From the sequence record PZ386967.1: a stretch of 64,000 nt of DNA. One strand, given 5' to 3'. This stretch comes from a phage. The position numbers and the translations under genes are program-made. Positions 1-6,882 of the stretch are shown piece after piece (position 1 is the first letter of the stretch; each line of letters starts with the position of its first letter). The notes under the pieces were generated by a model. The model saw only the letters and a program-made list of their open reading frames with translations, did no database searches and was not told the DNA's origin.

Positions 1-2211
1 ATGGCGTATCAGAAGCGTGATGTAGAATACGCCCCACTCAAGACGGGGTTTAAGACAGAAGACGTCAGACTGCGTATGGACCAAACGTTCATGCGCAAGC
101 CGTCTGTGCGCGCTCCTCGTGTGGAGTTGATGCTAACAGATGAGCAGGAATCGGAGTTCGTCGAGTGCGCGATGGACGCCCATTACTTCGCCGCCAACTA
201 CTACAAGATCACGACCATCGATAAAGGCTTCATCCTCTTTGACATGCACGATTACCAGAAGCAGTTGTTCCATGACTTCCAGGACTATCGATTCAATGCG
301 GTCGTCCAGGCTCGTCAGTCTGGGAAATGTGTAAAAGGTGACACGCTTGTCACAGTTTACGATACTCTCAGCCAAGAGCAGTTGCTCCTGACCATAGGGG
401 AGCTTCACAGCCGCTTCGAGGACGTCAACCACGCTGTGCCGCTGAATACCATTGGCAACCATGACAAGTTCGTGGACAGCCGCTTCGGCAAACGTTACTT
501 TGTGCAATCCGATAGTGGTTGGGTTCCGGTTATCGCAGCGCATAAGACGAAGAAATATGCGGAATTCGTTATTGTGACTGTTACTGGGCGGCGAATTAAC
601 GTGGCCGACGAACATATATTCTTCACTCCGGAAATGAAGGAGATATTTGCCAAAGACCTGAATTCTGGGTCATACATCATGACGTCAGAAGGTCCAGAAG
701 AAATCCGTGAGATTTGGCAGACTGGTGAGACGCATCACATGTATGACCTACAGGTGAAATCTAGTGATCAGCGCTACTACACCAACGGCTTCCTCAGCCA
801 CAACACGACAGTCGTGGCAGCGTTCCTGCTCTGGTATGCGATGTTCCACTCCGACAAAGAGATCGCAGTACTGGCGAACAAAGAGAAGCAGGCGATTGAA
901 ATCCTAGATCGTATTCGCAAAGCATATCAAGATTTGCCATTCTTCCTCCAACAGGGTTGTGAGAAGTTCGGTTCCACGCTGATCGAGTTCGAAAACGGAT
1001 CAAAGATCTACGCCTATGCGACATCTTCCGACTCCATCCGTGGTCGATCCGTATCGCTCCTGTATGTGGACGAAGTGGCGTTCATTGAAAACGACTTTGA
1101 ATTCTGGGAGTCTACATTCCCGGCGATTGCATCTGCAGAGACTTCACGTTGTATTCTGACCAGTACGCCGAAAGGTCAGCGCGGGTTGTTCTACGACATC
1201 GTCACCAAGGCGAACCCAGAACACCCACAATACAACGACTTCAAACTCACCGAGGTCCCATGGTATCGTGTTCCAACGTACACCAAAGATCCAGACTGGG
1301 AATCCAAACAAAGGGCGAAGCTGGGTGATGCACGTTTCGATCAAGAATTTGGCATTAAGTTCCGTGGTTCTGTGGGATCACTGATACCTGCCAAGTGTCT
1401 GGACAAGATGACCTCGAAGCTGTATCAGGAGCCGAACGAGTTCACCAAGATTTATCACGACTACGATCCTAAGCGCATCTATATGGGTATCGCAGATACA
1501 GGCAAGGGTGTCGAAGGGGATTATTCTGTGCTGACCATTATCGACATCACAGACTATCCTCACAAGATCGCAGCCAAGTATCGAAATAACACGATACCTC
1601 CAATGATGTACGCGTACACAATCGCCGATATGGGCGAGAAGTATGGAACGTGCCCGATGCTAGTCGAGACTAACAACGACGTGGGTGGTCAGGTGATCAC
1701 AATTCTATACCAGGAAATTGAATATCCCGAGATCATCTTCACTACAACAGATACCAAGGGCACAGGCAAGAGAATCGGTGGTCGCCGCCCTGAGCCTGGT
1801 ATCAATACCAACAAGAAGGTGCGCACAAACGGCTGTGCCAACCTGAAAGCCCTGATTGAACGTGAAATGCTGGTGATAGATGACCAGGACACGATAGATG
1901 AACTCAGTACATTCGTATGGACTGGAACAAGGTATGAAGCCGATGATGGTTGTCATGATGACTGTGTAATGCCCCTCGTGTTGTATGCATGGGCGGTGAA
2001 ACAAGAATGGTTTAGTGACCTCACCAACTCCAGTATCTCAGTCGACATGAGAGGACGGTTGTCTGCGATGGAAGAATCACAGATGCTACCATTTGGAGGT
2101 ATGATGTCGACGCCAGATCCTCACTCTGTGGAGAACATCCCAGGGTTCGGTGGAATTCAGGTTTATGACGACCGCTCTGGTATGTCTATGGAAGAATGGC
2201 TGAGACGGTGA
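1..2211 (+). CDS. gp17: Terminase large subunit (gp17-like), interrupted by a mini-intein; may be 5'-partial at window start
   Basis: Exteins match remembered T4 gp17: Walker A reads ARQSGK|TTVVAAF once residues 110-268 are removed; downstream LYVDEVAF and C-terminal nuclease-region similarity. Only ~109 aa precede the P-loop versus ~160 in T4, so the true start may lie upstream. Confidence 0.9.
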   Translation: MAYQKRDVEYAPLKTGFKTEDVRLRMDQTFMRKPSVRAPRVELMLTDEQESEFVECAMDAHYFAANYYKITTIDKGFILFDMHDYQKQLFHDFQDYRFNAVVQARQSGKCVKGDTLVTVYDTLSQEQLLLTIGELHSRFEDVNHAVPLNTIGNHDKFVDSRFGKRYFVQSDSGWVPVIAAHKTKKYAEFVIVTVTGRRINVADEHIFFTPEMKEIFAKDLNSGSYIMTSEGPEEIREIWQTGETHHMYDLQVKSSDQRYYTNGFLSHNTTVVAAFLLWYAMFHSDKEIAVLANKEKQAIEILDRIRKAYQDLPFFLQQGCEKFGSTLIEFENGSKIYAYATSSDSIRGRSVSLLYVDEVAFIENDFEFWESTFPAIASAETSRCILTSTPKGQRGLFYDIVTKANPEHPQYNDFKLTEVPWYRVPTYTKDPDWESKQRAKLGDARFDQEFGIKFRGSVGSLIPAKCLDKMTSKLYQEPNEFTKIYHDYDPKRIYMGIADTGKGVEGDYSVLTIIDITDYPHKIAAKYRNNTIPPMMYAYTIADMGEKYGTCPMLVETNNDVGGQVITILYQEIEYPEIIFTTTDTKGTGKRIGGRRPEPGINTNKKVRTNGCANLKALIEREMLVIDDQDTIDELSTFVWTGTRYEADDGCHDDCVMPLVLYAWAVKQEWFSDLTNSSISVDMRGRLSAMEESQMLPFGGMMSTPDPHSVENIPGFGGIQVYDDRSGMSMEEWLRR
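328..804 (+). other. Mini-intein (Hint domain, 159 aa, no endonuclease domain) inserted in the terminase P-loop
   Basis: Begins with Cys (CVKGDTLVTV, block A), ends MYDLQVKSSDQRYYTNGFLSHN followed by Thr (+1) (blocks F/G); removal restores the Walker A motif GKTT. Confidence 0.8.
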
Positions 2212-4159: not shown

Positions 4160-4201
4160 TTTACTCCATGCCCTCTTCGGAGGGTACATTGAGGTATTGT
4201 T

Positions 4202-4504
4202 ATGAAAAGTTTTTCTCAATTTTTAGCAGAAGCAGGCCTAAAAGGTGACCTTCAGAAAGTTAAAGACTCCGTGATTGAATGGTTGGAAGACCAAGATGTA
4301 AGGCTCAAAAAGGGTGATATCGAAAATGGAGTATTTGGAGATTTCTTCCGCATAACCATTGATGATTTTGAATATACATATAATGGCAAAGAGATCAAAG
4401 TATTCGACCTGAAGAAAGATAAACAGGTTGTTAGCAAAGCTGCTGGAACTCGAGAAGCCCCAGGTGAACTCGGTAAATTGTTTAAGAAATACAGCAAAGT
4501 GTGA
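4202..4504 (+). CDS. Small basic protein with T4 internal-protein-like capsid targeting sequence
   Basis: N-terminus MKSFSQFLAE|AGL resembles T4 IP targeting sequence MKTYQEFIAE with L-x-E cleavage motif; followed by a terminator. Confidence 0.5.
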   Translation: MKSFSQFLAEAGLKGDLQKVKDSVIEWLEDQDVRLKKGDIENGVFGDFFRITIDDFEYTYNGKEIKVFDLKKDKQVVSKAAGTREAPGELGKLFKKYSKV

Positions 4505-4509
4505 CAAGA

Positions 4510-4537
4510 CCCCGCTTCGGCGGGGTTTTAAATTTTT
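4510..4537 (+). terminator. Rho-independent terminator
   Basis: Hairpin CCCCGC-TTCG-GCGGGG followed by a T-run. Confidence 0.7.
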
Positions 4538-4550
4538 CTAGATTATTTTA

Positions 4551-4578
4551 TTGAATTACTTTACTTCTTCAATAACTC
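4551..4578 (+). promoter_or_regulatory. T4-type early promoter (-35 TTTACT, 16-bp spacer, -10 TATAAT)
   Basis: Matches the repeated cassette; T4 early promoters have a GTTTAC-type -35. Conserved leader and start context follow. Confidence 0.55.
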
Positions 4579-4635
4579 ACGTATAATTCTAAACATAAGC
4601 AGTACGACACCAACTTGAAACGAAGGAACTATATC

Positions 4636-4992
4636 ATGACCAAGACCGAAATTAACGCTATCCTGAAAGAAATCGGCCTCTGCAACCTGAAACGCCGCGT
4701 CAATCCTTACCAGCCCGCAAAGCCAGTACGCGACAGCCAGGGAAAGATGATAAAAGGGATCTACTGTGCAGATGTTGGCCCAATGACTGTGACCAGTCCA
4801 CACATTGACAGATTTAACGCTATTGTTGAGGAGTTTTGTGGTAAGGTTCTGGGTGAACTAGCTAATGATTTATGCTCCCCAGATACCAAAGTTGTAGCTT
4901 TCGGGAGCCACCTCGTCACATTCCACCTCACCAGCTTCCGTGCCCACGGTGATTATCATGTGTATTATGCTCAGGTTAGCATTCGCAAATAG
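4636..4992 (+). CDS. Hypothetical early protein (119 aa)
   Basis: ATG inside the conserved GGAACTATATCATG start context; the track's 4615 start is an upstream TTG. Confidence 0.5.
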   Translation: MTKTEINAILKEIGLCNLKRRVNPYQPAKPVRDSQGKMIKGIYCADVGPMTVTSPHIDRFNAIVEEFCGKVLGELANDLCSPDTKVVAFGSHLVTFHLTSFRAHGDYHVYYAQVSIRK

Positions 4993-4998
4993 CAGTTT

Positions 4999-5025
4999 AC
5001 CCCGCTGAGGCGGGGTTTAGTTTTC
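4999..5025. terminator. Terminator hairpin between convergent genes
   Basis: ACCCCGC-TGAG-GCGGGGT followed by T-rich tract; lies between the + gene ending 4992 and the - gene ending 5017. Confidence 0.6.
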
Positions 5026-6801
5026 CAGTTCATACCGGATAAGACCACACCCCCAGATACGCCCCAACCCGGCTTCCACCGACAGCATATCCTCTGTTTT
5101 GCCTTCTATATCGTATCCAAGTTTAAGGAATTTCTCTTTCCTGAAATTGAATTTGTGTATACGTAAGCTATAGTCTGGTGTCACATATTTGTAATCAGGG
5201 GGAAGGATTTCCTTTTCAACAAATCCGTTATTCAGGTAAACATTTTTCAGACGACTGACAACACAACGATCACCAAAAGAATATACTGTCTCACCCCGAT
5301 GTCGAGCGATATAATATTTCAGCAAGCGTGAGAATGCGCCATGGCAATTGTTAGAAGCAAATCTCACCAATTCAATACCATGCACTCGTTTGGTAAACAA
5401 CATCACCGCCTGGATATTCCCAGTTTTGTCTACAAGGTGTATATAATCTGTCGCCACCACACCACCTTGTATATGGAATCGGTCGAGAAAGTCCTTGGAC
5501 GTCCTATAGGAGCCTTCCAAAATGGTATGTTGGCGAGCGTATGACAATGGTTTCCCTATCCCCAATTTTGCTTTTAGGAGTGATTTAACCACTTCCTGTT
5601 TGTCACGCCACTCATCTTCCCAGATATGGATTAATTGAATACCCTGGGATTCACAGTGCATAGTCTTTTCAAGATGGTAGTCTTTGTATCGATGTTTCTC
5701 CGAATGCCAATACAACCCATTAAATTCTATTGCCAACTTATGTTCTGGGCAGTATATGTCTATCTGGCGTGTGGTCGCCCTCCCGTCGAACATTTTACCT
5801 CTGAGGACGGAGAAATTACCAGATTCATAAACGACACCCAATGAATCCAGGTATGAACATATTTCTATTTCTGGCTGTGTTTGGCTTTGGCTGCTGGGGT
5901 ATGTGAAAGAGTTCCTATATTCTTCAGAAGAGAAATAGTGAGGTACGCCGTATTTTTCTTTTGAAATGATCCTGGTATTGGCCTGGCTTCTATCCCATAT
6001 AGCCTTTACCTTCAACGGATAATCAACCCCATATTTTAAGACGCATGTTTTCTTTCTCTTTTCTATAATGGAATTGAGGAACATTGGATGATCCACACCA
6101 TAGATCTTCCTCCAAGTCTCAATCACCCTTTCCCTCACTTCTGGCATTTTCATGACGTGTGATACGCCATAGCGTTCCATGACAGAAGCAGCCACTCTGT
6201 CCTTTATAACATCAGACTTCATAGGGTGGTCGACCCCATATTTCTTAAGGGCAGTTTCCCGTGACTTTTGTTTTACTTCTTCCAGTTGGAATATGTTGGC
6301 TACGCCATATTTCTCTGTTATGGCGTTTTCTAGGTTGGCCCGTTCTGAGCCTCCCACCTTCATTGATTCTCGTTGGCATTCTTCGGAACAAAACTTTTTG
6401 TATCTGGGCGGTTGGGCTTCCATTTCTAAGCCGACGTCAGCACCGCAAGTGGCACACTGCGACTTCGGAATATCGTACAGCCAAGCAGTTATCGCTTGTG
6501 GTTCTTCTAATAGGTCGTTGTGTGACACCACGTATCCAACAACATCAACCCCAGTATGGGCCGTGAGTAGGGGATGAGAGATAAGTTTGTAGTTCAACGA
6601 ACCATCTTTCTTCCTGAGTTTACTATCAACCCAAGAGCGGCATTCGGTTTCGGTCGTCGGGATGTCATCCAACAAACCCGGATTGCGTTTCATCGTTCCC
6701 AGCATGAATGATTTGCATTCGTCACTACAATACAACGCAGCCTTCCTGGTTGGGGTGAACGGTTTGTGGCAGCATAAACAATTTTTATCGGGGAATGGCA
6801 T
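5017..6801 (-). CDS. Free-standing homing-endonuclease-like protein: N-terminal zinc ribbon, five KYGV repeats, C-terminal PD-(D/E)XK-like nuclease domain
   Basis: CCHKPF...YCSDEC and CATCG...FCSEEC cysteine pairs; repeated ~28-aa units (EKYGVANIF, KKYGVDHPM, ERYGVSHVM, KIYGVDHPM, LKYGVDYPL, EKYGVPHYF); C-terminal IDIYCPEHKLAIEFNGLYWH...IWEDEW resembles Vsr/DUF559-type nucleases. Antisense insertion between gp18 and gp19. Likely ATG at 6801; the track starts at GTG 6816. Confidence 0.6.
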   Translation of the reverse strand: MPFPDKNCLCCHKPFTPTRKAALYCSDECKSFMLGTMKRNPGLLDDIPTTETECRSWVDSKLRKKDGSLNYKLISHPLLTAHTGVDVVGYVVSHNDLLEEPQAITAWLYDIPKSQCATCGADVGLEMEAQPPRYKKFCSEECQRESMKVGGSERANLENAITEKYGVANIFQLEEVKQKSRETALKKYGVDHPMKSDVIKDRVAASVMERYGVSHVMKMPEVRERVIETWRKIYGVDHPMFLNSIIEKRKKTCVLKYGVDYPLKVKAIWDRSQANTRIISKEKYGVPHYFSSEEYRNSFTYPSSQSQTQPEIEICSYLDSLGVVYESGNFSVLRGKMFDGRATTRQIDIYCPEHKLAIEFNGLYWHSEKHRYKDYHLEKTMHCESQGIQLIHIWEDEWRDKQEVVKSLLKAKLGIGKPLSYARQHTILEGSYRTSKDFLDRFHIQGGVVATDYIHLVDKTGNIQAVMLFTKRVHGIELVRFASNNCHGAFSRLLKYYIARHRGETVYSFGDRCVVSRLKNVYLNNGFVEKEILPPDYKYVTPDYSLRIHKFNFRKEKFLKLGYDIEGKTEDMLSVEAGLGRIWGCGLIRYELEN

Positions 6802-6882
6802 AATAAATATCCTCACTTTGGAGTATTTTAACCCCCATTTATTTCAAAACTAAATATTTACACTATTCAGAGGAGAACGACC

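Follow-up and report, generated by a model that had tools for sequence, protein, structure and literature searches.

A predicted class 1 mini-intein in the Walker A P-loop of the large terminase of a Vi1-like phage, with evidence of partial exchange between Ackermannviridae lineages

Terminases are a common target of inteins (PMC4760082), and the site between Lys and Thr of the P-loop (K/T site) was termed 'classic' for inteins by Kelley et al. (2016, mBio; PMC5050341). In the same work, five representative terminase inteins at other sites were reported to splice efficiently (three in TerL1, one in TerL6, and one in the terminase-like Pham3880), and splicing was argued to be needed for formation of the TerL active site in mycobacteriophages (PMC5050341). 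In mycobacteriophage TerL1-a, as in the protein described here, the P-loop intein follows the invariant Lys of Walker A and precedes the nucleophilic Thr (PMC5050341); however, the host protein there belongs to the terminase_1 family, whereas the present host protein is of the terminase_6 (T4 gp17) type. The terminase_6 inteins of Kelley et al., in turn, sat in the C-motif and not in the P-loop (PMC5050341).

In sister phages of the one analyzed here, the TerL intein is already annotated and published. The genome announcement of phage Marshall (2013) reports it (PMC3853055), and that of Klebsiella phage Magnus (2019) states that the large terminase gene 'harbors an intein element' (PMC6763660). 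The protein database contains a 159-aa 'intein' of the Salmonella phages Maynard and Marshall (YP_008772116.1) with C...SHN boundaries, and one Dickeya phage record labels the terL gene 'pretoxin HINT domain protein'. The Marshall/Maynard and Magnus inteins share the host protein, the K/T site, the length of 159 aa, and the C...SHN boundaries with the intein studied here; the Marshall/Maynard intein is 76% identical to it and represents a different allele. A literature search retrieved neither a dedicated study of the intein in Ackermannviridae, Kuttervirus, or Viunalikevirus nor a published splicing assay of it.

The window, a stretch of 64,000 nt from sequence record PZ386967.1, derives from a Vi1-like phage of the Ackermannviridae. 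Its genes are arranged in the order terS-terL-sheath-tube-portal-protease-capsid, and a single copy of terL was found. With the annotated terminase large subunit genes of the Escherichia phages vB_EcoM-RPN242 and LHE287 (Ackermannviridae, Aglimvirinae), terL shares 98.5% DNA identity; in the equally similar YX22 record the gene is labeled 'hypothetical protein'. The following features were assigned in the gene:

1..2211, plus strand: precursor ORF of TerL (gp17-type large terminase), 736 aa plus stop
1..327, plus strand: N-extein, aa 1-109, placed by alignment to T4 gp17 and intein-free homologs
226..675, plus strand: approximate mosaic tract, running from the last part of the N-extein through the N-terminal two-thirds of the intein, based on sliding-window identities and dS
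328..804, plus strand: predicted class 1 mini-intein, 159 aa, HINT fold only (NCBIfam, Pfam, family profile, AF2, Foldseek)
328..330, plus strand: Cys1 of the intein (residue 110, TGT), block A nucleophile, invariant in 20/20 homologous inteins
604..615, plus strand: block B, A-D-E-H, aa 202-205, from the alignment of homologs; paired with 'TPTH' of the CDC21 intein in the phmmer match
739..789, plus strand: block F, MYDLQVKSSDQRYYTNG, aa 247-263, from the family alignment and profile
790..807, plus strand: block G, F-L-S-H-N plus the +1 Thr (His267, Asn268, Thr269)
805..2208, plus strand: C-extein, aa 269-736, from the T4 gp17 alignment and Pfam

Pfam analysis of the TerL precursor identified Terminase_6N (PF03237) at aa 269-461 (63.5 bits) and Terminase_6C (PF17289) at aa 498-655 (29.1 bits), and PHROGs matches were to large-terminase families only. 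The Terminase_6N match enters at profile position 11, directly after the insert. With the intein removed, TerL matched T4 gp17 (3EZK, 3CPE) with an E value of about 4e-72. The junction aligned without gaps ('arqsgkttvvaafl' to 'srqlgkttvvaifl'). Walker B (LLYVDE to MIYIDE), the C-motif (TSTPKG to TTTPNG), and the HDD motif of the nuclease were aligned with their T4 counterparts as well. The exteins are thus homologous over the full length to T4 gp17 (3CPE, 3EZK, 2O0H), which, unlike the TerL of the window, is without an intein. On these matches the host protein is a Terminase_6, T4 gp17-type TerL, for which both an N-terminal ASCE ATPase (Walker A, Walker B with the catalytic Glu, C-motif) and a C-terminal RNase H-like nuclease are predicted.

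Walker A is divided between the exteins: its first half, A-R-Q-S-G-K (nt 310-327), closes the N-extein and places the Walker A Lys at −1. The C-extein opens with the Walker A Thr, and the nuclease domain as well as Walker B (LLYVDE) and the C-motif (TSTP) lie within it. The insert closes with S-H-N at residues 266-268 (nt 796-804, with AAC of the Asn at 802-804), and the +1 residue, Thr269 (ACG, nt 805-807), is at the same time the Walker A Thr. Removal of the 159 codons gives ...VVQARQSGK/TTVVAAFLLW... in a protein of 577 aa, and restoration of a P-loop in this way is far beyond chance. A first-pass annotation of the DNA had placed an intein at codons 110-268 (nt 328-804), beginning with Cys, ending with SHN, and followed by Thr; these positions proved exact on re-reading of the ORF. 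Its further claim that the deletion joins QSGK and TTVVAAF into a canonical P-loop agrees with both the T4 gp17 alignment and the intein-free TerLs described below. A peptide spanning the Lys109-Thr269 junction of the spliced product is predicted, for example after chymotryptic cleavage, to read ...QARQSGKTTVVAAF. The GC content of the intein (49.1%) and the C-extein (49.2%) revealed no foreign signature.

Searches with the insert against generic intein models gave scores close to the thresholds. NCBIfam intein_Nterm matched insert residues 1-100 with 25.2 bits (cut-off 24.5), Pfam Intein_splicing reached 35.7 bits (cut-off 35.8), TIGR01443 was under its cut-off, and PHROGs yielded no match with the insert alone as query. 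Weak phmmer matches were obtained to the Cat consensus, CDC21, gp41-1, VidaL, and GyrA inteins, in which the C-terminal '...YYTNGxxSHN' of the insert was aligned. From TerL homologs, 25 homologous inserts at the K/T site were collected (150-181 aa, and one of 443 aa), 20 of which were aligned. The aligned inteins are 35-77% identical to that of the window (the lowest 35-43%), and their length differences are limited to the loop between block A and the 'KFVDS' strand. Cys1, His96 (block B), Asp140 (block F), and His158 and Asn159 (block G) are invariant in all 20. The profile built from this alignment matched PDB sequences of gp41-1 (6.3e-11), VidaL (2.4e-10), and Cat (3.9e-8).

An AlphaFold2 model calculated on the same alignment (pLDDT 95.6, pTM 0.88) comprises an all-beta horseshoe with two short helices. 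In a Foldseek comparison of this model with the PDB, the top 50 matches were all inteins or the related BIL domain, with the best E value for VidaL (4.6e-11) and TM scores of up to 0.81 (TFIIB mini-intein). The insert is thus predicted to adopt a HINT fold, shared at TM 0.7-0.8 with the solved gp41-1 (6QAZ), VidaL (6VGV), Cat (6DSL), NpuDnaB, TFIIB, and CDC21 mini-inteins. Homology to these is best in blocks B, F, and G ('YDL..V....YYTNGIxSHN'), with an identity of only 15-25%. The solved mini- or split inteins have other host proteins, or they are split, either in nature or by engineering, whereas the intein of the window is contiguous.

No LAGLIDADG, HNH, or GIY-YIG domain was detected in the insert with Pfam and NCBIfam at E values up to 1; the matches in this range were Pfam Intein_splicing, the NCBIfam intein N- and C-terminal models, and two NCBIfam models of intein-containing proteins. 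The insert is classified as a mini-intein because no endonuclease domain was detected and the stretch from block B to block F (H96 to D140 in intein numbering) is only about 40 residues long. Pfam, NCBIfam, the predicted model, and Foldseek thus agree with the initial proposal of a HINT-only mini-intein lacking LAGLIDADG and HNH blocks. The profile search of residues 110-268 suggested at that stage gave modest but specific matches to intein models, and the matches of the family profile to solved inteins are convincing. The assignment to class 1 follows from the presence of Cys1 and from Asp, not the Cys of class 3, at the block F position. A class 3 intein, with its triplet of block B Trp, block F Cys, and block G Thr and a branched intermediate on the block F Cys, was considered and ruled out by the block F Asp249, the penultimate His of block G, and Cys1. 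A contiguous version of the split TerL inteins was likewise rejected. AceL-TerL, GOS-TerL, and Cat-TerL have Cys at +1, which suggests another insertion site, whereas Thr occupies +1 here, and the likeness is limited to generic blocks; the split TerL inteins are therefore treated as probably distant relatives only.

We assign a probability of about 0.9 to the reading that a class 1 mini-intein without an endonuclease is encoded by nt 328-804, that its splicing yields a TerL of 577 aa, and that packaging should need this splicing. The proposed steps are the standard ones known for class 1 inteins. At Lys109-Cys110, the block B His205 (intein H96, nt 613-615), which is invariant and aligns with solved inteins, would assist an N-S acyl shift. 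The hydroxyl group of Thr269 would then attack the thioester to give a branched intermediate. Cyclization of Asn268, assisted by His267 and by the block F Asp249 (intein D140, nt 745-747; invariant and aligned to gp41-1 and VidaL), would release the intein of roughly 18 kDa. A final O-N acyl shift would form the Lys-Thr peptide bond and restore the GKT of Walker A, so that the spliced TerL would have 577 aa and an unbroken ARQSGKTT P-loop. We infer that this splicing occurs. The unspliced TerL would not be able to bind ATP, and the gp17 ATPase fold leaves no place for a 159-aa domain within the P-loop; TerL should thus be inactive before splicing, and there is strong reason to expect that headful DNA packaging requires it. 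The position of the Thr in the textbook TxxH of block B is occupied by an invariant Ala (A-D-x-H) across the family, and at +1 a Thr is less nucleophilic than a Cys. In view of both points, the splicing efficiency is not to be assumed.

The distribution of the intein was analyzed at the DNA level. A megablast search with the full gene retrieved 254 phage records, 251 of which cover the insert; their hosts are Salmonella, Klebsiella, Escherichia, Dickeya, Serratia, Shigella, and Enterobacter. When a 122-aa peptide across the virtual junction was used as tblastn query, all sampled phage records with at least 80% identity were matched in two pieces over 843 nt (366 + 477), as expected for presence of the intein. 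Vibrio phages at about 70% identity and more than 2000 T4-like phages were matched in one piece (about 360 nt in the Vibrio phages), as expected for its absence. Nei-Gojobori dN/dS ratios were calculated from codon-aligned pairs with unsaturated dS, several pairs being saturated, and amounted to 0.06-0.20 for the intein and 0.003-0.03 for the exteins. These values indicate that the intein is constrained by purifying selection, less strongly than the terminase.

Such data would also fit a functional intein with conditional splicing that responds to redox state, temperature, or binding of DNA or the small terminase, and serves as a post-translational switch timing terminase activation. A switch would account for the retention, in every record sampled at that junction identity and in nearly all megablast records, of an intein that has no homing endonuclease and is under purifying selection. 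The position of the intein would disable the ATPase until excision, and regulatory roles of inteins have been discussed in general by Kelley et al. and Novikova et al. However, an intein is hard to delete precisely from a P-loop that is essential, which accounts for fixation just as well; splicing residues should be under purifying selection wherever an intein interrupts an essential gene; and intein-free relatives clearly manage without it. Conditional splicing is considered improbable on balance. A slightly lower chance still is given to the proposal that virtually all enterobacterial Ackermannviridae retain the intein for its usefulness as a switch, and not just for want of a way to lose it; the switch would delay the ATPase to late infection or to a particular cellular state, while recombination would shuffle the intein alleles between genera.

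The noncanonical block B and the near-threshold scores with generic models could alternatively be taken as signs of a degenerate HINT insertion, an intein relic that no longer splices and either stays in the mature protein or inactivates a gene copy. This is very unlikely: the essential catalytic residues are all invariant in distant homologs, dN/dS is far under 1, and a 159-aa domain in the P-loop does not fit the ATPase fold of T4 gp17. Moreover, the GK/T motif is split in the only TerL found in the window, yet the phages are viable isolates.

The splicing mini-intein is also favored by comparison with intein-free relatives. These were gathered by a homolog search with the whole TerL; with the 159-aa insert alone, the homolog search retrieved two proteins only, one of which was the GenBank 'intein' record. 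Five intein-free TerLs (P0015-P0019; 575-581 aa), with exteins 73-85% identical to the TerL of the window, read QARQSGKTTVVAAFLLW without interruption, and their P-loop sequence is the same as that of the spliced TerL. One of them (P0016) is encoded on a 118-kb contig with the same gp13-gp14-gp15-terS-terL-sheath-tube-portal order. Alignment of the insert as a native terminase subdomain in such homologs had been named beforehand as an outcome that would overturn the intein reading; instead, the insert is missing from them to the residue. A native, lineage-specific subdomain or an assembly or annotation artefact, for which nothing but the constant length of 159 aa in enterobacterial Ackermannviridae speaks, is refuted for practical purposes, because the insert is missing to the residue from T4 gp17, from the T4-like TerL genes, and from the Vibrio phage and metagenomic homologs, is present at the same coordinates in more than 250 independently sequenced genomes, and has a predicted intein fold in the Foldseek comparison.

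The origin of the intein allele was traced by comparing identities along terL. The exteins of the window are closest to Agtrevirus. In comparison with Ag3, DNA identity was 87% for the N-extein, 90% for the C-extein, and 77% for the intein, whereas in comparison with the Kuttervirus phage PhaxI, a member of a different subfamily, it was 84% and 74% for the exteins and 93% for the intein, with a peak of 97% over nt 300-525. The mosaic tract is 90-97% identical to PhaxI, whereas the flanking TerL DNA is only 69-85% identical. In agreement, dS between the window and PhaxI was 0.33 for the intein and about 1.5 or more, or saturated, for the exteins. Two intein alleles with about 78% protein identity, the Marshall type and the PhaxI type, coexist in Kuttervirus. 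The intein of the window represents the PhaxI type (96-97% amino acid identity to PhaxI, GG32, and SenALZ1; 76-79% to the Marshall type). The data provide evidence that the N-terminal two-thirds of the intein were exchanged between Aglimvirinae and Kuttervirus lineages. Since the tract has one end in the N-extein and the other within the intein, its origin looks like ordinary homologous recombination between co-infecting phages and not like precise homing, which fits the lack of an endonuclease in the intein.

The biology of this intein is already on record for sister phages; the exchange of part of it between subfamilies is a modest addition, and its presence in all phage records sampled at 80% identity or more a minor one. 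The intein is a further example of the documented preference of inteins for P-loops of essential ATPases. In practice, phylogenies, length comparisons, and structure models of Ackermannviridae TerLs should use the 577-aa spliced sequence. A compact intein of coliphage origin with Thr at +1, for which cis-splicing is deduced, could be of interest to protein engineers.

A tblastn search with the insert as query gave 310 records. Distant versions were among them: those from Campylobacter, Vibrio, and Salicola phages have TerL as host protein, and those from Pseudomonas jumbo phages have other host proteins. In PA5oct (MK797984.1) and Cassandra (OR805292.1), relatives at about 31% identity over the C-terminal 100 aa occur in nonterminase genes, annotated as 'structural protein' and 'UvsX-like recombinase'. 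In the Klebsiella phage TTM-TASP117 (PV588649.1), the intein match is in two pieces (680 nt versus 477) distributed over two 'hypothetical protein' CDSs, which points to an insertion or a frameshift. The record of 'Enterococcus phage Efm 3-10' (OR844942.1) contains an Ackermannviridae-type TerL intein, suggesting that it is mislabeled or contaminated. In the 738-aa TerL of Vibrio phage VP-1 (P0059), a P-loop intein and the ATPase are followed by a GIY-YIG domain (aa 506-589). P0052, P0056, and P0088 have the same arrangement, and the Terminase_6C nuclease domain was not detected in any of the four, which suggests that terL genes of this type are interrupted by, or fused to, a GIY-YIG endonuclease. 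A metagenomic TerL (P0063; ENA metagenome scaffold, L003) carries the 443-aa insert at the K/T site. In the adjacent T4-type portal gene, which runs off the locus, an Intein_splicing domain was flagged (L003 8755-8952); the contig would thus carry two inteins in adjacent packaging genes. In the 64,000-nt window, the family HMM detected no second intein of the TerL-intein family.

No tRNA genes were found in the window. The 2.7-kb spacer between the sheath and tube genes (4160-6882), the first roughly 345 nt of which are absent in most relatives, contains three ORFs:

4202-4504, plus strand: 100-aa ORF, between the sheath gene and the 599-aa ORF
4615-4992, plus strand: 125-aa ORF, between the sheath gene and the 599-aa ORF
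5017-6816, minus strand: 599-aa ORF, on the strand opposite to the structural genes

The 100-aa and 125-aa ORFs gave no Pfam match. The 599-aa ORF contains 'KYGV.HP' repeats and matched Pfam DUF7487 (1.4e-25); Vsr/DUF559-type nuclease matches were below the Pfam cut-offs (MTES_1575 23.7 bits, DUF559 19.9 bits). Its relatives are annotated as putative homing endonucleases (F-LimVIII type in LIMEstone1). As a candidate free-standing endonuclease, the 599-aa ORF was considered as mobilizer of the intein and rejected, because it belongs to the sheath-tube site and nothing connects it with terL. At the same sheath-tube site, the closest relative, RPN242, harbors a 714-nt GIY-YIG endonuclease gene in place of the 599-aa ORF, indicating that different free-standing endonucleases use one site.
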